IMG/VR virus record: IMGVR_UViG_2778261162_000007
Length of the DNA: 47,425 bases
From: a virus
Taxonomy: Duplodnaviria > Heunggongvirae > Uroviricota > Caudoviricetes
Direction: 5' to 3' (one strand)
Within the stretch, counting starts at the first letter, position 1; every line of letters begins with the position of its first letter. Under the pieces are notes generated by a model. The model did no database searches. It was given only the letters and a program-made list of their open reading frames with translations, and had not been told where the DNA came from. Position numbers and translations under genes: made by a program. Of the stretch, positions 9,313 through 37,558 are shown piece by piece.

Positions 9313-10437
9313 ATGGTTAAGGCTAAAAATATGCCAAATCCCATGCCAAAAACTAAGGCAAACAATGAGCCTTATCGCAAGGTAAAAATAACGATATGGG
9401 ATGATCCCAAATTTAGGGCGTTATCTCCTCTGCCTCCAAGTGGACAGAGTTTGTTTATTTATCTGCTGACCAGTCCATTTACCGGGATTATTCCTGGGTT
9501 GTTTAAAGCCGGGCGGGCAGCAATGGCTGAAGAGTTGGGGTGGGATATCGAAGCCTTTGACTTAGCCTTAGGCGAAGCCATGAATCTTGGCATGGTGAAA
9601 GCAGATATCAAAGCCAGAGTTTTTTGGCTCCCGAATGCTGCGAAACACAATCCGCCAAACTCGATAAATGTCATTAAATCCTGGGCAAAGGCATTCGCTT
9701 TAATTCCTGATTGTCCTCTCAAATGGGAGGCCAGGGAATCGCTGAGAGCCGCGTCCTATGGGGTTTCTGAGGCTTTGGGGATGGCATTCGATAAGGCAAT
9801 CCCTTTGCCTGAGGATAAGCCTAAGGATAAGGCTAACGCTTTGTCATGCGGTATCCAGATAACAGATAACAGATATATAAACCCCACACATAACGCGCGC
9901 GTGCGCGAGAGTGCTCCGGCCAGTGAGGCAAATGGCGTGCCGTTGCAGACAGCGGAACCTGATTACCTGGAAGGCCTGAACGAACCCATCGGGAAATTTC
10001 CGATGACTGATGGCTGGCATCCGTCGCTGGATTTTCGACGGCGGGCAGCTCTGTGGGGAGTGGCTCTGCCGGAGCCGGAATTTACACCAGCTGAACTTGC
10101 CGCCTTCCGGGACTACTGGGCAGCGGAGGGGAAAGTTTTCACGCAGGTTCAGTGGGAGCAGAAATTCGCCCGTCACGTAAATCACGTCAGGGCGCAGGTT
10201 AAACCAGTCAGCAAGGGGGTGAACCATGCAGCAGCACCAGGTGGCACCGCATCACGGGCAGTTCAGGAAATTCGGGCAGCACGTGAGCAGTGGGAACGTG
10301 AAAACGGATTTATCAGCGACGGAAACGGCCTGGAAGTTGTGGGAACTCATGGGGGAGGTTTATTCGAACCGCTGGACCCAGAAGAACGGGGCCGCACCTT
10401 CGAAGCTCTGGATTGCACAGATTGGTGCGATGACTGA
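9313..10437 (+). CDS. Putative replication-module protein (possibly YdaU-like)
   Basis: Start [34 protein letters not shown] chosen inside the longer ORF-track form; no Walker motif seen. Confidence 0.4.
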
Positions 10438-16255: not shown

Positions 16256-16338
16256 TTTTTTACGCATAAACCGCTTCAATTTTGCTAAGCTTCGCAAAGC
16301 TGTATCGCGAGGTGAACCAAGCGCATGAACTTTGATAC

Positions 16339-16364
16339 AACCCGCCATTGAGCGGGTTTTTTAT
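16339..16364 (+). terminator. Intrinsic terminator (tR'-like) downstream of Q
   Basis: AACCCGC-cattga-GCGGGTT hairpin followed by a T-run. Confidence 0.55.
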
Positions 16365-16484
16365 GTCCGAAAAACGGCAGAGAACATAAAACGTGCTGGT
16401 GGTTGCGAATACTGGTCTTTCGGCTTGTATTTTTGTAAATCGATATATACTTATCTTGTGACCAGTAATGTCAGGGCAATTGAT

Positions 16485-17228
16485 ATGAATGAAGCCTGTT
16501 CTGTTGTTTTTGTTCATTCCCCGTTTGTTGTGCTCTTTGAAGGAAAAGAGCTCTCTCTTGAAAGTGGTAGTGCACTTCTTGTCAGGGGGGGAGCTGGATC
16601 GTTATTGCCCTTTTCGGAATGTTTTCGGCGAATAAGTCTCAGTGAATCGACAATTAGCCGTTACCTGTTGTGTGGAGACGAAAAACAGGATGTAGTTTTA
16701 GTCCGGCAAATACCACGATATCTTTGCGTGAGTTTTCCGAAGGCAGAATTGATGGGCATCCTGATTGATTATCTTTGTGAGGAAAAGATTCATACGGACA
16801 ATTTAGCGGAAATGCTTTCCTTTTCGTGTCTGGCGTTTTTCTCATCAGAGAAGATGTTTTCGTCGTTTCTGACCGCGTGTATTAGCAATATTAGTGACAG
16901 GCTTAGTGCATTGTTTCGTACGGACATTGCAGCAAACTGGACTCTGAGAGATGTGTCTTCGCGGTTATGTATCAGTGAAAGTTTGTTAAAAAAAAGACTG
17001 AAAGAAGAAGGCACCTGTTTCAGTGAGTTGTTGCTTACAGAGAGAATGAGAATGGCAGCAATGCTGTTGAATCAATCTCGTTGCGCCATCAACAGAATCG
17101 CTGCTCAGTGCGGCTATAATTTTACATCTTATTTTATCAGCGTATTCAGGAGTTATTTTGGTGTTACACCGGCAGGTTACAGGATGGCTGCATTCAATGA
17201 GATGAGTTTAAGTGTTACTCAAGAATAA
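16485..17228 (+). CDS. AraC/XylS-family transcriptional regulator (AppY/PatE-like moron)
   Basis: C-terminal double HTH ...WTLRDVSSRLCISESLLKKRLKEEGTCFSELLLTERMRMAAMLLNQSRCAINRIAAQCGYNFTSYFISVFRSYFGVTPAGY; visibly AT-rich; lies between two terminators. Confidence 0.8.
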   Translation: MNEACSVVFVHSPFVVLFEGKELSLESGSALLVRGGAGSLLPFSECFRRISLSESTISRYLLCGDEKQDVVLVRQIPRYLCVSFPKAELMGILIDYLCEEKIHTDNLAEMLSFSCLAFFSSEKMFSSFLTACISNISDRLSALFRTDIAANWTLRDVSSRLCISESLLKKRLKEEGTCFSELLLTERMRMAAMLLNQSRCAINRIAAQCGYNFTSYFISVFRSYFGVTPAGYRMAAFNEMSLSVTQE

Positions 17229-21136: not shown

Positions 21137-22228
21137 ATGAGCAGACCGGACTGGGGGGCGTTGCAGCAGGAATATATTGCTGAATACACCCGCTCCGGTG
21201 TATCTCCGGTGGCATGGTGTGAGGCAAGGGGACTGAATTACGCAACAGCCCGTCGTTACATCAAAAAACCTCCGAAAAATGCGCAGACAGAAATGCGCAA
21301 AACTGCGCAACAAAGTGCGCAGAAAAAATCTGCGCAGACTGCGCAAAAGCGGAACGGAAAATCTCAGAAAAAAAAGCCAGTATCCGATGCGTGCCTGAAT
21401 GAGGGCGACGCGGAGGAATTTTCGTTCTGCCCCGATGAATTCGGCATTTCTGACCAGCAGGCTAAGTTTGCGATGCTTGTTGCTCAGGGGAAAAAGCCGA
21501 CAGAGGCATACCGACTGGCTGGTTATGAGGGGCAAGGTGCGACAGCTAACAGCAACGCCAGCCGTATGCTTAGAAATGCCAGGGTTTATCGTGCTATCAG
21601 CTACTTCCGCAATCAGTATCAGAAACGCTATACCGCAGACCTGGATTTACTGGTGAGTCAGTTGATGGCTATTGTCCAGGCCGACCCCAATCAGTTGGCA
21701 CAATTTCGCCGTGTTAACTGCCGTTATTGCTGGGGCGAGAATCATCTCTACCAGTGGCGTGATATTGCAGAATTCGATAAGGCAGCGGCACAGGCCTCCA
21801 GAGATGGCAAACCCGAGCCGGAATATGGAGGCCTCGGCTTTGTTGATAACGCCATACCCAATCCGGATTGTCCGAAGTGCTGCGGTGAGGGAACGGGACA
21901 GCTTTATATGGCTGATACCACTCTGCTTGATGGGGATGTGCGACAATTATATGCAGGGGCAAAGCTCGGGAAATTTGGTGTTGAGATCCTGCTGGAGGAT
22001 AAGGCTGCCGCCCGGCGCGAACTTATCAAGCTGATAATGGCGACGAAAGGAAGTTCTGCTGGTGGTGCAACTGACAGTCGCAATGATCTGGAGCTTGAAG
22101 GACTGAGGCTTCGCAACGAAAAGCTGCGCACTGAGATTGAAAACCTCAAAAAAGGCGTGGGTGGTGAGAATAACGAAATAATTATCCACAACTCTCTGCC
22201 GATGCCGGGAGTGGATAATGTCGATTGA
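21137..22228 (+). CDS. Terminase small subunit
   Basis: Central ...QQAKFAMLVAQGKKPTEAYRLAGYEGQGATANSNASRMLRNARVYRAI matches the small-terminase HTH pattern; immediately upstream of the large terminase. Confidence 0.7.
   Translation: MSRPDWGALQQEYIAEYTRSGVSPVAWCEARGLNYATARRYIKKPPKNAQTEMRKTAQQSAQKKSAQTAQKRNGKSQKKKPVSDACLNEGDAEEFSFCPDEFGISDQQAKFAMLVAQGKKPTEAYRLAGYEGQGATANSNASRMLRNARVYRAISYFRNQYQKRYTADLDLLVSQLMAIVQADPNQLAQFRRVNCRYCWGENHLYQWRDIAEFDKAAAQASRDGKPEPEYGGLGFVDNAIPNPDCPKCCGEGTGQLYMADTTLLDGDVRQLYAGAKLGKFGVEILLEDKAAARRELIKLIMATKGSSAGGATDSRNDLELEGLRLRNEKLRTEIENLKKGVGGENNEIIIHNSLPMPGVDNVD
21280..21345. repeat. Cluster of six palindromic TGCGCA hexamers inside terS (candidate pac/TerS-binding site)
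   Basis: TGCGCA at about 21280, 21294, 21304, 21316, 21331 and 21340, spaced 9-15 bp. Confidence 0.5.
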
Positions 22229-30139: not shown

Positions 30140-31070
30140 AGAATTAGCCGAACAGCACAGTTCGCAGCTCTCGTCCGTTCTTAAATCAGCAGTTGAAACC
30201 ATCTCGTCAGACCAGGAAATCACGTTCAGGCTCTATGTCCGGCAGGTTCTGCCGCTGGATGGCTTTGTCTATTGGGTTAATGCGGAAATCATCAGTTGCG
30301 ATGAACTGTGTCGTCTGAATATTGAGTCACCAACTCGTCTGAAAATCAAAGGCAGCCTGCATCGTCAGGTTATTGCGATTCAGGACGAGTCTGTCTCGAA
30401 GGATGTGAACAACATTATTTTCACGCCTGTTCAGCAGGTTGATGATTTTAATGTGGAAAATCCCGATGCGATCTATCTCGGTGAGTACGGCGGCGTCCAG
30501 TTCGCTTTTTCTCGAATGGAGAGCCGCTATCAGCAGTCGGGTATTTTTCATTATCGCGGCATGGCGATTTTGCCAACCATGCGTTCCCAGATTATCGACT
30601 GCGAGGAGGATATCAGCGACGAGCAGATCATATCCAACAGCATCCCGATCTGGCTGCAAATGAAAGATGCCGCGACCGTGTATCCGTCTTACTTGGTACC
30701 GCAGAACCTTCGCCCTCCGTATATCGCGGTGGATGTTCGCAACAGTATTCCGTTGCAGGTGGCTCCCGTTGTTTTCGGTGGTGAGCGATTCCAGCTCGTC
30801 CAGGATTCGGTTCGCCTGACGCTTTACGGATTCAGCAATAAAATGGCGCTGGATCTTGTCGACTCGGTGGTGAACAGGGCGCTGGAGGAGGAAAAGTTTG
30901 GTGTAACCAATATTCCGGTGGTTCAGGACGCAAAGTCGGGACAGGTTGAAATCAACGCTCTGGCGAAGAAAAAGATTGTCGATTTTGACGTGAATTACTA
31001 CCAGAGCACCGCCCGGGAAATATCCCGGCAGTTGATTGAAAAAGTCATTTGTAAATATGAGGTTAAATAA
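30126..31070 (+). CDS. Hypothetical structural protein
   Basis: Position only. Confidence 0.3.
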   Translation: MPSLEELAEQHSSQLSSVLKSAVETISSDQEITFRLYVRQVLPLDGFVYWVNAEIISCDELCRLNIESPTRLKIKGSLHRQVIAIQDESVSKDVNNIIFTPVQQVDDFNVENPDAIYLGEYGGVQFAFSRMESRYQQSGIFHYRGMAILPTMRSQIIDCEEDISDEQIISNSIPIWLQMKDAATVYPSYLVPQNLRPPYIAVDVRNSIPLQVAPVVFGGERFQLVQDSVRLTLYGFSNKMALDLVDSVVNRALEEEKFGVTNIPVVQDAKSGQVEINALAKKKIVDFDVNYYQSTAREISRQLIEKVICKYEVK

Positions 31071-32407
31071 TGGGGTTTAATATCGTCACGGTGAATGTGT
31101 CCCAGACCATCGGGGCCATTCCCTCGAATTCGCAGCAGATGTCCGCTGTTCTCTCGTTTGGCTCCACGACTCATGAGCCGGGAAAGCCTGTATTACTCAC
31201 CCGTAATCAGGATATTAACGATCTGGTAAGAAATCCGATTGCTGCGTTGTCGGCGGCTGCTGCAGGAAAATCTGCGGCAAACGTCACCGTTACGATGACG
31301 CTTCCGGAAGGGAGCAACATCCGACGCGAAAACAGTTCTGAGGTGAAAATTGTTGTTTCCGGGTGTTCGCCCGACGCGTGGAATGGCGAATATACTGCTA
31401 CCGTCACGGATGAAAAAACACTGACTTGGACGATTGCTGATTCTCAGCTTTCCGGTTCGCCAGTGACACTGGGGCAGTTTTCCATTGTTGGCAGTGAAAA
31501 TCTGGTGACGGCAGTAAACACGTTTTTTGCCCAGGGAAATTCAGTTGGGATTTACCTGCTGGAGCTGGGAGTACAGAAAGGTGGAGTCAGTAAGGAAATC
31601 GCTGCACTGAAAGCTTATATGGAAGATCCGCTCCTGCGTTTTTATGCGTATCTGGTGCCGCAGCCGTGGGATGGTGACGCAGAGTTTATCAGTCTGGCAA
31701 AACTCCACACCGCCAACGAAGCGATGCAGTATTTCTTCGTGCTGACGAAAACGCCGGACGACACGAATTACGTTTCGCCTTATGCCGGTATTAAGTCGGT
31801 TATTGCAACGGCGGATGATACGTACCCGGCGACAAACGCGGCAGCAGCCGTAATGTGGAACTATGTTTCCGCATCACCTTCAGAAATCAACAAGGTGCCG
31901 CCGATGGCATTTCGCTATCTACAGGCGGTAAACGCCCACACGGGCAAAAATTCAATTCTGGTCACGATGACGAAGCAGAATATTAACTACGTCGACACGG
32001 GGGCTGAGGGGGGAATTTCCAACACGATTCTGGTGAAAGGCGTTACCAGTGACGGTAACGATATGACGTACTGGTATTCCGTGGACTGGGTGCAGATTAA
32101 TGTCGATATGCAGCTCGCCAACACGGTGATCAACGGCAGCAATAACTCAATTAACCCGCTTTACTACAACCAGGACGGGATCGACCGTCTACAGCAGGTC
32201 GCACAGGCGGTGTTCAATACGGGCGTATCTTACGGCCTGGTCAACGGTCAGCCTGTCGTCGATGCAGTGCCTTTCCGCCAGTATATCAACACTAATCCCA
32301 ATGATTACGGTATCGGGCGTTATGCAGGCCTTTCGGCCTCCTATACGCCGATGCGCGGATTTGTCGAAATCATTTTTAACATCAATGTGACAATGCAGCT
32401 TTCGTGA
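31070..32407 (+). CDS. Putative tail sheath protein
   Basis: 445-aa ORF followed by a tube-sized gene, a frameshifted chaperone and a tape measure, the myovirus-like order. Confidence 0.5.
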   Translation: MGFNIVTVNVSQTIGAIPSNSQQMSAVLSFGSTTHEPGKPVLLTRNQDINDLVRNPIAALSAAAAGKSAANVTVTMTLPEGSNIRRENSSEVKIVVSGCSPDAWNGEYTATVTDEKTLTWTIADSQLSGSPVTLGQFSIVGSENLVTAVNTFFAQGNSVGIYLLELGVQKGGVSKEIAALKAYMEDPLLRFYAYLVPQPWDGDAEFISLAKLHTANEAMQYFFVLTKTPDDTNYVSPYAGIKSVIATADDTYPATNAAAAVMWNYVSASPSEINKVPPMAFRYLQAVNAHTGKNSILVTMTKQNINYVDTGAEGGISNTILVKGVTSDGNDMTYWYSVDWVQINVDMQLANTVINGSNNSINPLYYNQDGIDRLQQVAQAVFNTGVSYGLVNGQPVVDAVPFRQYINTNPNDYGIGRYAGLSASYTPMRGFVEIIFNINVTMQLS

Positions 32408-32418
32408 GGGACTGAACC

Positions 32419-32862
32419 GTGCCTAATCCAATGATCCCCGTTGGCACCCTTAACCGGGTTCGCGCCAGCGTTAAATTCACCTCCCATTCTGAACTGAATG
32501 TGTCCGCCTCATTTCTGGCAAAAGAAGGCGTCGAATTGTCCTTTCAGGGCAATATCACGGAGTTTTTACCCGCTATGACGGGAGCCGTGCAGTCGCCGCA
32601 GCCATACATGATTTTACAGGCGCGTGTTCATCTGCTGCGTAGCCAGGCGCTGGGAAAACAATTCAAGGCGCAATGGGAAAAGAATGCCACGATCGGCGAC
32701 GCAAAAGTGTATAGCGACAGCACGGTGTTCGGTGACTTCGATATCTATAACACGGCGATCACCAACGTGCAGGATATGACCTTCGCCGGGGGCGAGCCGG
32801 GTGTGGCCATCACCATTACTGGTACGTATTACATCAACTCTGAAATGTGGGATCTGGTATGA
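32419..32862 (+). CDS. Putative tail tube protein
   Basis: 147-aa ORF after the sheath. Confidence 0.45.
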   Translation: MPNPMIPVGTLNRVRASVKFTSHSELNVSASFLAKEGVELSFQGNITEFLPAMTGAVQSPQPYMILQARVHLLRSQALGKQFKAQWEKNATIGDAKVYSDSTVFGDFDIYNTAITNVQDMTFAGGEPGVAITITGTYYINSEMWDLV

Positions 32863-33476
32863 AAATCGCGCGAAATTTAAACCTGATTATTCCTGTCCGG
32901 ACAGAAAAGGGTAATGGCTGGATCCATGCCACGCCGATCAGCAAAGAGGTGTTTAAAGAGCATTTCTTCATTCTGAGTAAAACTTTTTCTGCCATTTTTT
33001 CAGAAGGTCTTGGCGTCGTTGCGGGTCCGCGTATCGCTTTTTTGATGCTGGAGCGGATCTCGCGTGATTCTAATATCTGGGAAGGTGATAAAGGGGTCCG
33101 TAATACACTTGTTAATGAGGTCATTCGCCTGGCAAACCTTGTTTACTCAGTGGAGGGTAAAGGCTACGACACAATCCCTCTCGATATGGCGCTGGAGCGT
33201 GAAATCATTGATTTGGATGAAGTGGCGGGTGAGCTCATTTTTTTTACATGCGTCTCGTCGATAAATTCACCGGAGCAGGCGAAGGGGACTATGGATGTGG
33301 TCAATGGAGTATGGAGCACTCAATGCTCGTTATTGAATCTTACGGAATGGATCGCTTCATTGCCGACATTGAAATCAGCCGCCAGTTCTGGCGCGACGGC
33401 GAACACGTCATCAGCGACATCCTCGACTACTCAGCCGGAGCCGGATTCAGAGACATCTGTGCAGATTCCGGCCTAA
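32859..33476 (+). CDS. Tail assembly chaperone (G-like, 0-frame product)
   Basis: Start overlaps the tube stop (ATGA); contains a T-run slippery site near 33238..33245; acidic/Ser-Thr-rich tail. Confidence 0.45.
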   Translation: MKIARNLNLIIPVRTEKGNGWIHATPISKEVFKEHFFILSKTFSAIFSEGLGVVAGPRIAFLMLERISRDSNIWEGDKGVRNTLVNEVIRLANLVYSVEGKGYDTIPLDMALEREIIDLDEVAGELIFFTCVSSINSPEQAKGTMDVVNGVWSTQCSLLNLTEWIASLPTLKSAASSGATANTSSATSSTTQPEPDSETSVQIPA

Positions 33477-33541
33477 ATGTAAAAACAGCAGCTCAGTTTC
33501 GTGAGCTGCTCAAATTCAAAAATCCCGCAGGAGTATTGTGA
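33248..33541 (+). CDS. Tail assembly chaperone -1 frameshift extension (GT-like)
   Basis: ORF in the -1 frame, overlapping the chaperone and ending at the tape-measure start; entered via a T_TTT_TTT-type slip. Confidence 0.4.
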   Translation: MRLVDKFTGAGEGDYGCGQWSMEHSMLVIESYGMDRFIADIEISRQFWRDGEHVISDILDYSAGAGFRDICADSGLNVKTAAQFRELLKFKNPAGVL

Positions 33542-35616
33542 TGGCTGGTAACCAGATGCCAGTTCTGACGCTGGATGTTAATGAAGAACACCTCAGGCGG
33601 CTTGAGGCGATATTTGAAAAGTATCGCAACGGACTGATGATTGGCCCTGCCGGTACGCCGCTTAAAATACCTTCAAATACCGGTCCGGGAGGTGGCTCTT
33701 GGCAGACAACCACAGGCGGAGAAGCCAATCAGGCTCCCAGGAAACCATCTTCACCCGCGCCAGTTCTGGCTGCTTCCACTGATGGACGTTTAAGGGATGA
33801 AAAATGGCGCTTTGTTGGCAGCGGGAAAACACCTGATTCGCTGGTGAGCAACTATAAAGGTCGCGGCGAAACGATGTTTGATAAGTACCTCAGCGGGCTG
33901 GGGAAAAACGCCAAACAGACGCTGAAAACTTACAAGCAGATCAATTCTACGCTACGGACGACCACTTCGAGATTAAACAACCTGTTTAAAACCACCGTAT
34001 CGTGGGGGACAAAACTTGCGGTTATGGGCGTTACCGGGCCGTTTGGCTTTGGCATGATGGCTCGTAATGTTGTAGAGAAACAGAAAAATGCTGATGAATT
34101 GCAGGCAACTCCAGGAGAGTTAAAGGCGGCAGAAAGCACTTATTCGCCTTATTTTTCCGGTGTTGGTAATTTGCTCAATACACTGGCAGCCGCGCAAAAT
34201 GACACTCAGCATCCTGCTTACAACGGGCTAATTGGATTAGGGATAAATCCTAAAAAAGGGGCAGCAGAAAATCTTCCTGTATTGTTAGAAAGAGTTGCTG
34301 CTCTTGCAAAGGAGTATGAGGGAACCGGACTTACTCAGAGCATGCTCAGAGGTCGTGGCCTTGGATGGGTAAATTTTGGTATTGCTAACCAGTTAGTCAA
34401 ATATCAGGACAAAATACCTGAACTCAACAAAGAGTTTTTATCGCGAGCTTCTCAGAATGACTCGTTGCTCACCTCTGGACATACAAGCCAGTATCAGAAT
34501 CTTACCAGTAACTTAGAAAATAACTGGGATCAACTTACCAGCGGATTTCAGGGGGCAATGTCGGGTAACTCTGTACAGCTAATTAGAATATCTAATGGTG
34601 TAAAGAATGCTGGTCTAAATTTCCTTAACGGTGAGAACTTTAAAAGAATTTTGACTGATGTTGAAACAGGTCTGGATAAACTTGGTAAGTATGTAAATGG
34701 CCCGGATTTTAATAACGACCTGAATAATTTTGCCGAAAATGTTGCAAAGGTTGTTAAGGCACTTAGCGGGTTTGTTGGTTTTGCGGTTGAACATCCCTGG
34801 CTTTTTGGGGCCGCAGTACTTGCTGGACCATCGAGAGTTGGTGCTGTGGCAGCCACAACGACCGGAGTTGCCGCCCGTGTTGTTGGTGGAAGTCTTCTTG
34901 GGGCTACAGCCGGAACAGTAGCTGGATTGGCTATTCCTACAAATGACACACCAACCACCAGTGAGGAAATGAAAGGGCTGGAGGGGCGTTTCAACTTTGA
35001 TTATTTTAACGAAGTGCAGGAGTGGCAAAAAAACAATCCGGGTAAGGTCTGGCCTGGAGGATTGCAGGGATTTTCAAATCAAGTAAACAGATCTGCATAT
35101 TTATCCAGAGGGATCAGGAATAACAATCCCGGAAATCTTAATTTCGCAGGACAAAAAGGGGCTACCTTGGAATCGGGGCCAAATGCCCGTTTTGCCAGCT
35201 TCCCGACGATGCTGGAAGGCATTGCTGCCTTAGATCGGCAGGTAATGCTATACCTGAAACGCGGCAAAAATACGATTGATCAGATTATTGATATTTATGC
35301 CCCTTCATCTGATGGAAATAACACATCGTCCTATAAAAGCTATCTCTCTCAGTACACCGGATTAGGTGTTAAGGAGAAAATCGATGGTTCTAATTTTGAG
35401 ATAATGAGAAAGCTAATTCAGGGCATTATTAACCATGAAAATGGGGACGCCGCTCGTGCAGTAAGTGGCGATGATGTGATGCGGGCGCTGGCAATGAACC
35501 GGGGAAACGTATATTCACCAAATAATACTTCTCAGGTAATCAGGCTCGACGTTCAACAAAAACCAGGTTCCGACATACTGGCACAACTCGCCGGAATGCA
35601 ACAAATACCGGGGTAA
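33541..35616 (+). CDS. Tail tape measure protein
   Basis: 692 aa; Gly/Ala-rich hydrophobic segment (LFGAAVLAGPSRVGAVAATTTGVAARVVGGSLLGATAGTVAGLA); position after the chaperone pair. Confidence 0.6.
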   Translation: MAGNQMPVLTLDVNEEHLRRLEAIFEKYRNGLMIGPAGTPLKIPSNTGPGGGSWQTTTGGEANQAPRKPSSPAPVLAASTDGRLRDEKWRFVGSGKTPDSLVSNYKGRGETMFDKYLSGLGKNAKQTLKTYKQINSTLRTTTSRLNNLFKTTVSWGTKLAVMGVTGPFGFGMMARNVVEKQKNADELQATPGELKAAESTYSPYFSGVGNLLNTLAAAQNDTQHPAYNGLIGLGINPKKGAAENLPVLLERVAALAKEYEGTGLTQSMLRGRGLGWVNFGIANQLVKYQDKIPELNKEFLSRASQNDSLLTSGHTSQYQNLTSNLENNWDQLTSGFQGAMSGNSVQLIRISNGVKNAGLNFLNGENFKRILTDVETGLDKLGKYVNGPDFNNDLNNFAENVAKVVKALSGFVGFAVEHPWLFGAAVLAGPSRVGAVAATTTGVAARVVGGSLLGATAGTVAGLAIPTNDTPTTSEEMKGLEGRFNFDYFNEVQEWQKNNPGKVWPGGLQGFSNQVNRSAYLSRGIRNNNPGNLNFAGQKGATLESGPNARFASFPTMLEGIAALDRQVMLYLKRGKNTIDQIIDIYAPSSDGNNTSSYKSYLSQYTGLGVKEKIDGSNFEIMRKLIQGIINHENGDAARAVSGDDVMRALAMNRGNVYSPNNTSQVIRLDVQQKPGSDILAQLAGMQQIPG

Positions 35617-36288: not shown

Positions 36289-36551
36289 CAACGTTAATTC
36301 CTTTCAAACCTGACGGGCGAGGACCATTTCAGTTCACTGCCAGAATCGGAGAATATGAAACATTCGCCCGCGTTCCGTTTAATCTGTATGCAAATCGTTA
36401 CTACCTGGAACTGAAAGACAGTTCAGGCGACGTGATTGTATACATGCCTTTGATCGCGTCACCTGACAGTTACGACATCAATCTGGCGCTGCCTTGCTCT
36501 CCGGGGAAACTTGTTTTTCGCGAAAGTACGAATCAGTTTGAGGTTTCGTAA
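36285..36551 (+). CDS. Hypothetical tail protein
   Basis: Position; overlapping start. Confidence 0.3.
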   Translation: MTTLIPFKPDGRGPFQFTARIGEYETFARVPFNLYANRYYLELKDSSGDVIVYMPLIASPDSYDINLALPCSPGKLVFRESTNQFEVS

Positions 36552-37558
36552 TGCGTTATTACCGACTGGAAATTATTAATCCTAAAACAGGCAAGCCGCC
36601 AGTGGATAGCAATGGAAAACCCATTGGACCTTTTGATACCAATGAAACACCAGGATGTGGGTTGCATGTTGAATTTGACTTTGAAGTAACCGGCCTGGAT
36701 GTAGTCTGTTCGGGTACGATGCTGACGATCTATGGATTACCAATTGACATGCTGAAGCAAAGCGTAAGTTTGCAGGGTTGTCTGGTACGTATGAAAGCAG
36801 GCTTTGTTCAGGGGTTACCACTGGCAAATAAGGATCAACAGGGGGAGGTAATCTATGGTGAAATTTATCTGGCCTATGCCAACTGGATCGGCACGAACCA
36901 GACTTTAAACCTGGTAATAAATCCAAGCATACGCAAAACCGATGACGGTAAACCTTTTTCAATTGAGGGGCAGGGGGAAGCAGGGGAAAGGGTGGGCGAT
37001 GTTTTAGTCCGCGCTTTGCAAAAAGCATATCCCAATAAACTTATTGATTGCACAGTCAGCGACAACCTGGTTTTGCCAGAGCCGTGGACGGGCAAATATA
37101 CGGAGATTGGTTCGCTGGCTATGGTCGTAAAAAACGCCTCTATTGCGATGATGCGTAATGAAAGGTATAGCGGAATCGCCATCAGTATTCTTTCCGACAG
37201 AATACGAATCTACGATAACGCATCGGCAAAGTGGGGTGAGCCAAAAACAATTCATGCCCATGAACTGGTCGGGCAGCCGACATGGATAGCGCCGTTTACC
37301 GTCAGTTTCAAATGCCCTATGAGAGGCGATATCAGATGTGGTGATGTGGTTAAACTGCCGGAGGGGCTATATTCTGGCGCTGCGTCGATTGTGATGGCTA
37401 ATACAACGGTACCCAGCGTTATCGCAAAAAATTCGACCACGTTCACCGGGAAATTTCTTGTGAAATCAGTCAGACACATTGGTTCGTATCTGACAGCCGA
37501 TGGCGATGCCTGGGTGACGGTATTTGAGGCATATGCTGAGAACTGGGCGAGGGTGTAA
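36551..37558 (+). CDS. Putative baseplate hub / tail protein
   Basis: Position between the tape measure and the spike-like gene. Confidence 0.35.
   Translation: MRYYRLEIINPKTGKPPVDSNGKPIGPFDTNETPGCGLHVEFDFEVTGLDVVCSGTMLTIYGLPIDMLKQSVSLQGCLVRMKAGFVQGLPLANKDQQGEVIYGEIYLAYANWIGTNQTLNLVINPSIRKTDDGKPFSIEGQGEAGERVGDVLVRALQKAYPNKLIDCTVSDNLVLPEPWTGKYTEIGSLAMVVKNASIAMMRNERYSGIAISILSDRIRIYDNASAKWGEPKTIHAHELVGQPTWIAPFTVSFKCPMRGDIRCGDVVKLPEGLYSGAASIVMANTTVPSVIAKNSTTFTGKFLVKSVRHIGSYLTADGDAWVTVFEAYAENWARV

Follow-up and report, generated by a model that had tools for sequence, protein, structure and literature searches.

A conserved T-run inside a putative tail assembly chaperone gene of a Rac-type myovirus prophage is very probably a slip site for a second, longer protein

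The 47,425-nucleotide (nt) stretch of viral DNA analyzed here (the window; IMG/VR record IMGVR_UViG_2778261162_000007, Caudoviricetes) carries at 32859-33476 on the + strand a gene assigned to a putative tail assembly chaperone, and within this gene lies a run of eight T. Comparison with relatives indicates that this run is very probably a real and evolutionarily conserved slip site that yields a second, longer tail-assembly protein. In what follows, G is the protein read in the 0 frame, T the extension encoded in the -1 frame, and GT the predicted fusion of the two. The comparative sequence evidence makes it highly likely that recoding at this site produces GT and, with less assurance, probable that the recoding event is a -1 slippage of the ribosome. 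With more reserve, we lean towards the view that the site acts as a C-terminal module switch, conserved across a large and uncharacterized chaperone family, in which one stretch of ~200 nt is under selection for both modules. A programmed -1 frameshift in the tail assembly chaperone had been proposed in a preliminary description of this DNA, and that proposal is now supported by the conserved heptamer, the -1 open reading frame (ORF), the -1 peptide, the coding signature and the gene order.

The 0-frame ORF begins at ATG 32859 and ends with TAA 33474-33476, encoding 205 amino acids (aa); a longer version starting at GTG 32847 is also present in the ORF list. The + strand sequence at 33230-33250 is tgagctcaTTTTTTTTacatg, in which the T-run comprises exactly eight T (33238-33245), followed by an A at 33246 that is invariant among relatives. 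In the 0 frame the run is read within the codons GAG CTC ATT TTT TTT ACA TGC, such that T_TTT_TTT (33239-33245) forms an X_XXY_YYZ heptamer in the register required for a tandem -1 slip, as the preliminary description had anticipated from a run of about eight T. The codons that follow a -1 slip are TAC ATG CGT CTC GTC GAT AAA TTC (Y M R L V D K F), giving the junction ...IFF-YMRLVDK..., and both the coordinates and the junction by which that description led into the overlapping 33248-33541 frame were correct. Beyond the slip the -1 frame stays open for 98 codons, until a TGA at 33539-33541 whose A is the first base of the tape-measure ATG (33541); the earlier statement that the frame ends at the tape-measure start therefore holds. 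The ribosome-binding site of the tape-measure gene, AGGAG at 33529-33533, is positioned 7 nt 5' of this ATG.

The predicted GT corresponds to join(32859..33245,33245..33541) on the + strand and has 227 aa; base 33245 is read twice, and the -1 extension (33245-33541, 98 codons plus TGA) belongs to PHROG 14324, of unknown function. The slip falls at codon 129 of 205, leaving 76 sense codons of the 0 frame which, together with the TAA at 33474-33476, overlie the -1 frame between 33246 and 33476. The following stretch, 33477-33538, which all records leave as 'intergenic', is coding in the -1 frame alone and includes the AGGAG. Four codons before the heptamer ends, the -1 frame is interrupted by a TGA (33230-33232), and slips 5' of that TGA are consequently non-productive. 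The in-register TTTTTTG at 33038, which resembles the slip site of phage P2, has a -1 continuation of only 7 codons, and the +1 frame at the T-run is closed after 5 codons. The two products can be told apart by their predicted tryptic peptides, the GT junction giving EIIDLDEVAGELIFFYMR and its G counterpart EIIDLDEVAGELIFFTCVSSINSPEQAK.

Considered in isolation, these features do not exceed chance. Four T8 or A8 runs occur in the window, where 8.0 ± 4.1 are expected, and five in-register heptamers occur within 32859-33476, TTTTTTG at 33038 among them. Because T8 and in-register heptamers by themselves are at chance level, the significance of the site comes entirely from the comparative evidence. 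The comparative set consisted of 16 sequences from 13 lineages (25-100% identity, G+C 0.46-0.67), the DNA of the relatives having been gathered by tblastn on phage records together with contigs encoding family proteins. It includes the clade of the window (the window itself, phage pPE4, an E. coli 'DH5alpha' prophage and a Citrobacter prophage), the phages Chronis, PdC23, vB_YenM_21.09 and Shewanella QDWS, and eight further loci from metagenomes or genomes (L017-L024).

At the same two Phe codons, 15 of the 16 sequences carry xxT TTT TTT A, the run being 7 or 8 T long; four lineages have 7 T, and among these 15 the run is never 9. The exception is locus L020, with 6 T, where the site reads C_TTT_TTT (GCC TTT TTT). 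Given the residues x-F-F and local codon usage, the chance of the string xxT TTT TTT A is 0.3-14% per lineage, and genomes of 59-67% G+C keep TTT TTT although TTT makes up only 14-31% of their Phe codons. The FF pair itself is at least 90% conserved in alignments with mean identities of 34% and 47%. The frames around the site are equally regular. Across the set, the -1 extension spans 94-115 codons and ends between -4 and +10 nt from the tape-measure start in 15 of the 16 sequences, the +1 frame is closed within 1-29 codons, and in 12 of the 16 the -1 frame is shut 4-14 codons 5' of the slip. In phage Chronis (L012:3131; Klebsiella phage vB_Kpn_Chronis, MN013086 gp14) the -1 extension runs on for 76 nt beyond the tape-measure start as annotated. 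Since it ends within 10 nt of the start in all other lineages, the Chronis start has probably been called too far upstream. Outside the window clade, the extension begins with YG., YC., YL., YV. or YS. An upstream GGTGA, similar to a Shine-Dalgarno sequence, is kept only where it codes for G-E and is absent in most lineages.

The 20 nt immediately 3' of the T-run (33246-33265, ACATGCGTCTCGTCGATAAA) are invariant or nearly so throughout the window clade, down to 65% protein identity. The invariance includes the wobble positions of both frames, and the block holds the TAA that stops the +1 frame. Part of this conservation is attributable to dual coding, and no RNA structure with covariation was detected in this block within the window clade.

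The length of the run deserved particular attention, as the preliminary description had found a discrepancy of one T between its reading of the letters and the ORF translations. That doubt is settled in favor of 8 T, which is the length in the window, in 13 of 15 independent assemblies of the window clade and in 76 of 77 relatives in IMG/VR. The other two assemblies are drafts with 7 T and further homopolymer insertions or deletions (indels), and a complete Pantoea stewartii genome whose flanking sequence is identical to that of these drafts has 8 T. The IMG/VR contigs were scanned with a pattern in which the run was replaced by a variable gap, and 8 T was recovered in 51 of 52 contigs of the window clade and in all 25 of the Chronis clade, the remaining window-clade contig (L061, IMGVR_UViG_2896595138_000001) having 9 T. 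Additionally, the exact Chronis-type GT fusion that would be predicted (235 aa) is present as a called protein on ~20 contigs (cluster P0389-P0397). The 9-T cases could represent a true T8/T9 polymorphism, in which GT would be the only product and the phage presumably defective or reliant on slippage back, or they could be assembly errors.

Two groups of loci were set aside. L010 and L011, with 7 T, were considered as a possible +1 arrangement; their other homopolymer indels and fragmented tape-measure genes point to assembly error or mutation. The Yersinia similis loci L008, L009 and L028 appeared to offer a compact G of 133 aa, and are in fact degraded prophages that are uninformative on G. 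In these three loci (L008:2616-3017 and its counterparts in L009 and L028) the N-terminal 115 codons of the chaperone have given way to a holin-like gene (PF16931), which joins in another frame ~45 nt 5' of the T-run, while the T8, both downstream frames and the tape measure are intact.

The product of the -1 frame is itself conserved. The -1 peptides are homologous across all lineages, with the window peptide matching those of distant lineages at 30-54 bits and 25-44% identity. The shared motif is Y..L...YG..RF.AD.D..R.FWR...L.W.A..GF...FR.R, in which Y1, Y33, G34, L60, G67 and R86 are invariant, the first of these being the Y at the junction. Differences per site among nine window-clade sequences, tabulated by 0-frame codon position (position 2 being the wobble position of the -1 frame and position 3 that of the 0 frame), distinguish three regions. 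Upstream of the slip the values for positions 1, 2 and 3 are.137,.101 and.482; after the 0-frame stop they are.122,.319 and.122; and in the overlap they are.133,.229 and.213. The 'intergenic' gap, where differences peak at the wobble position of the -1 frame, therefore codes in that frame. In the overlap the two wobble positions share the changes at reduced rates, which shows constraint on both frames.

Given the -1 peptide, the 0 frame would be open by chance with a probability of 0.05-0.55 per lineage, which is weak evidence on its own, and the case for dual coding consequently rests on the codon-position pattern and on three properties of G. HMMER alignments of hundreds of distant homologs extend to residue ~185. 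Two residues past the slip site, W152 and L168, are invariant in 83 sequences. The third property is a structural model of G (AlphaFold2, AF2; alignment of 83 sequences), with a predicted local distance difference test score (pLDDT) of 83.4 and a predicted template modeling score (pTM) of 0.77, which is folded from residue 4 to ~171 and disordered at 172-205. Here a helix at 123-135 spans the FF codons, and a helix at 138-152, a strand at 155-157 and a helix at 161-166 all lie past the slip. The corresponding model of the T module, based on a shallow alignment, reached a pLDDT of 42 and was unusable.

The 0-frame family as a whole comprises 684 clusters at 50% identity, typically of 180-200 aa, and is spread among Rac-type prophages, phages of the proposed Felixvirales, Yersinia vB_YenM phages and many metagenomic myoviruses. 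Every lineage of the comparative set continues the 0 frame past the slip for 54-76 conserved codons, in which the motif LWGAQ.TSLN.TE..ASL.TST recurs. By the family alignments and the AF2 model, the G product encoded at 32859-33476 consists of a body and a G-specific C-terminal module (residues 130-205). Its end (33453-33476) is part of a disordered Ser/Thr/Pro-rich tail, and the last residues, S-[IV]-P-[SV], are nevertheless conserved across the family; this suggests that the terminal [IV]P[SV] may be a short C-terminal docking motif that GT would lack. Because the slip lies inside the predicted fold of G, GT would lack the last ~40 folded residues as well as the tail, and the two proteins would thus differ by a swap of C-termini rather than by an extension of G. 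If both modules are indeed under selection on these ~200 nt, the C-terminus specific to G should have its own partner or function, one that GT has to lack.

The mechanism we propose is as follows. Most ribosomes would read through the run and make G (205 aa), and a minority, with tRNA-Phe in the P and A sites on U_UUU_UUU (33239-33245), would slip back by one base. Translation would resume in the -1 frame with Tyr (UAC), run through 97 more codons and terminate where a UGA overlaps the tape-measure start; the resulting GT would join residues 1-129 of G to a T module of 98 residues. If the parts work as in lambda G/GT and P2 E/E+E', the 129 N-terminal residues common to both products would coat or bind the tape measure, recruitment of the tube protein would fall to the T module, and a fixed slip frequency would set the ratio of G to GT. 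Missing from GT would be ~40 residues at the end of the G fold, the disordered tail rich in Ser and Thr, and the terminal [IV]P[SV], two alternative C-terminal modules being encoded in two frames of the same ~200 nt. The heptamer of the window is of the H_HH.U_UU.Y class, whose members rank with the most efficient -1 slip sites of E. coli; U_UU.U_UU.U supports more than 0.1% slippage without a stimulator, whereas the U_UUU tetramer requires a strong one (Sharma 2014, PMC4066793). L020 fits this last finding, as its weak site is combined with a strong hairpin, GUGGCCUCAGCGAUGCACAAGAAAGCGCAGCUGAGGCCA, located 5 nt 3' of the heptamer (-24 kcal/mol, z -5.5; L020:2899-2945, ENA ERZ25039590 contig_58937), which looks like a stimulator that compensates for a poorer slippery sequence.

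Several observations weigh against this explanation. The window has no significant stimulatory RNA structure (z +0.7); the consensus structure of the clade reaches -4.65 kcal/mol without covariation and that of the family contains 0 pairs. Lacking a conserved stimulator, the slip may be of low efficiency. UUUUUUU is avoided in E. coli genes in all three frames, possibly because of slippage. The GT product is itself deduced from sequence, and the chaperone role from synteny and architecture. Since GT would be without part of the predicted fold of G, the lambda model, in which GT holds the complete G, is not directly transferable. Finally, a 7-8 T homopolymer is also a plausible site of low-level slippage by RNA polymerase, 9-T variants that encode GT directly exist, and in the window clade an ATG (33248) just past the T-run makes a separate start of the -1 ORF conceivable.

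Some of these observations favor particular rivals. Transcriptional slippage, in which the polymerase would add one U at T8 and the resulting U9 mRNA would be translated normally, would make the homopolymer the conserved element and leads to an identical protein, so that the coding analysis cannot discriminate between the two; the mark of such sites is a mixed mRNA population with inserted or deleted U. The absence of a conserved ribosome-stimulating structure from window, clade and family, the under-representation of UUUUUUU and the natural T8/T9 length variants all suit it, as does the conserved element being a run of 7-8 T when most known tail-chaperone slip sites are mixed heptamers. We nonetheless regard it as unlikely. 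Efficient RNA-polymerase slippage is described at runs of 9 A/T (Atkins 2016, PMC5009743), and this chaperone family holds its runs at 7-8, with 6 in one lineage. Productive transcriptional slippage calls for an A/T run of at least 9, or a shorter one with a nascent-RNA hairpin; the runs here are of 6-8, and no conserved hairpin was found in the ~20 nt 5' and ~100 nt 3' of the run. Moreover, the run always ends at a codon boundary and is then followed by A, a register relevant to the ribosome and not to the polymerase, and the spacing of the L020 hairpin, 5 nt 3' of the heptamer, is typical of ribosomal stimulators.

It is far less probable that two separate genes are present, with the -1 ORF (33248-33541, 97 aa) translated from its own ATG and unfused to G. 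An ATG does follow the T-run in the window clade, GGTGA occurs 5' of it, and a 97-aa protein is reported by some gene callers (16 database entries; PHROG 14324). Yet in the other lineages no Met occurs at or close to the beginning of the -1 extension, and in Chronis the extension lacks Met altogether; conservation begins at the invariant junction residue Y1, 5' of ATG 33248. The GGTGA, at 15 nt from the ATG, is poorly spaced and codes for a conserved G-E, and the ATG directly follows a U8 tract inside a translated ORF. The remaining possibility is that nothing is recoded, the T-run and the open -1 frame being incidental (or the run length a sequencing error) and the 205-aa protein the only product. 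This would accord with T8 runs being within chance expectation for the window, with the frequency of in-register heptamers and with all public records, which call only the 205-aa ORF. The retention of exact nucleotides against codon bias, the end of the -1 ORF at the tape-measure start in 15 of 16 sequences, the conserved -1 peptide, the -1 wobble signature in the gap and the 8 T in 76 of 77 IMG/VR relatives are all contrary to it, and on these comparative data we consider it effectively refuted.

Overall, the data support the view that the site is an unannotated, deeply conserved case of the well-known tail-chaperone frameshift, in which a mid-gene slip and ~200 nt of dual coding are atypical. 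In phage P2, a -1 frameshift at TTTTTTG is described for gpE/gpE+E' (Christie et al. 2002, as cited in PMC3091744). P2 shares with the window a contractile tail and the order sheath FI, tube FII, E/E+E' and tape measure T, as well as a T-homopolymer slip site, the lack of a downstream stimulatory structure and an extension that overlaps the tape-measure start. The position of the slip sets them apart, being ~6 codons before the stop of E in P2 (E 91 aa, E+E' 142 aa) and ~16 codons before it in the P2-like KS5 and KL3, whereas 76 codons remain in the window and 54-76 in the family. Furthermore, G of the window is about twice the length of P2 E and has no detectable homology to it (hhalign 0.2%).

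In lambda, as summarized in PMC5009743, gpG/gpGT arise by a -1 frameshift at G_GGA_AAG (Levin 1993; Xu, Hendrix & Duda 2004, 2013, 2014), and the roles presumed there are for the shared part to bind the tape measure and the T part to bind the tube or major tail protein. Lambda and the window are alike in having two products with a common N-terminus and a -1 ORF that lacks its own start and borders on the tape-measure gene. The lambda shift, however, occurs 'near the 3' end' of G (G 9711-10133, T from 10115), such that GT contains essentially all of G, whereas in the window the last third of G is replaced, including ~40 residues of predicted fold. Only ~3-6 codons of the 0 frame are left after the slip in lambda and P2, compared with 76 here. 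Lambda is also a siphovirus with a different heptamer and shows no detectable homology to the window G. G/GT-type chaperones are further characterized by a constant, low GT:G ratio, a need for both products in tail assembly and the absence of both from the virion. The conserved G/GT arrangement invoked in the preliminary description therefore stands for gene order, the -1 ORF (startless outside the window clade) and the heptamer, and fails for the placement of the slip near the 3' end of G, which lies instead at codon 129 of 205. The known transcriptional slippage sites of Thermus thermophilus dnaX (T9), insertion sequence elements and Shigella type III secretion genes (PMC5009743) are also similar, in that a homopolymeric A/T tract opens an alternative C-terminus; those sites use runs of at least 9, compared with 7-8 here and 6 in one lineage.

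Assignment of the gene at 32859-33476 as the tail assembly chaperone of a Rac-type myovirus prophage draws on synteny and on the recoding architecture, the hallmark of such genes, by which it appears a good candidate. Neither G nor the -1 ORF matched Pfam, NCBIfam or PDB sequences in profile searches, comparisons by hhalign with P2 E (probability 0.2%) and lambda G all remained below 1% and detected no homology, and a fold search with the G model found no match in the PDB. Against BFVD the model gave weak matches, several of them labeled tail assembly chaperone (E 0.14-2.6, template modeling score 0.2-0.5). The characterized tail chaperone families lack sequence similarity to one another (PMC5009743), and homology is for that reason not a strict criterion for membership.

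The wider context is that of a Rac-type lambdoid prophage, with intR (integrase), recE, recT and ydaU-like genes on the left arm (1-25000), joined to the structural module of a contractile-tailed myovirus as in phage Rac-SA53; the window also resembles vB_Apl-pPE4. On the + strand, a tail sheath of 445 aa (31070-32407; PHROG 205, E 4.7e-53), found in the same place in all related loci, is followed by a putative tail tube of 147 aa (32419-32862; PHROG 6566, unknown function), the chaperone gene (32859-33476; PHROG 11810, unknown function) and a tape measure of 691 aa with a C-terminal lytic transglycosylase (33541-35616; PHROG 7694 and 2276; labeled SLT/lytic transglycosylase in relatives). A baseplate hub (36551-37558; PHROG 196) lies further along. 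The tube candidate, which has no match in Pfam or NCBIfam, is named from position and size, and a gene of 145-149 aa is present between sheath and chaperone in nearly all relatives. The order sheath, tube-sized gene, chaperone gene, tape measure and baseplate hub is kept in relatives.

In all public records examined, only the 618-nt ORF is called, as a 'hypothetical protein', and the next 58-145 nt are empty. This applies to the GenBank entries of pPE4, Rac-SA53, Chronis, PdC23, vB_YenM and QDWS and to RefSeq E. coli genomes, none of which records a frameshift, and neither a frameshift nor a chaperone is mentioned in the publications on the vB_YenM phages and on the Chronis/Roth/PdC23 group. 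A coding sequence of the type join(32859..33245,33245..33541) would correct the annotation of the whole family and account for what now stands unexplained in these records as either a 97-aa ORF or a 58-145 nt 'intergenic' gap. While the general picture of tail assembly is unaltered, the G/GT principle would be seen to accommodate a slip far within the chaperone and a stretch of ~200 nt that is read in two frames throughout. The family lends itself, as a compact natural model, to asking what the C-terminus confined to G does and how much of G is needed by GT; it includes cultivable phages and an inducible E. coli prophage, and L020 represents a natural compensation experiment.

Some minor observations were made along the way. 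vB_Apl-pPE4, at 92.7% identity, is labeled an Actinobacillus phage, an odd host for an element present in 92 E. coli genomes. In L005 (E. coli ETEC1732, NZ_CP122823), NUDIX hydrolase and DUF2213 genes stand in place of the sheath and tube while the chaperone and tape measure are retained, in what is a rearranged or mosaic prophage. Elsewhere in the window, two A8 runs on the + strand also form in-register heptamers: the highly shifty A_AAA_AAG at 21368-21375 (ORF 21137-22228, CAG AAA AAA AAG) and A_AAA_AAA at 16988-16995 (ORF 16332-17228, TTA AAA AAA AGA). At both, the -1 frame is shut after 9-10 codons, a slip would only truncate the product, and the runs are probably incidental.

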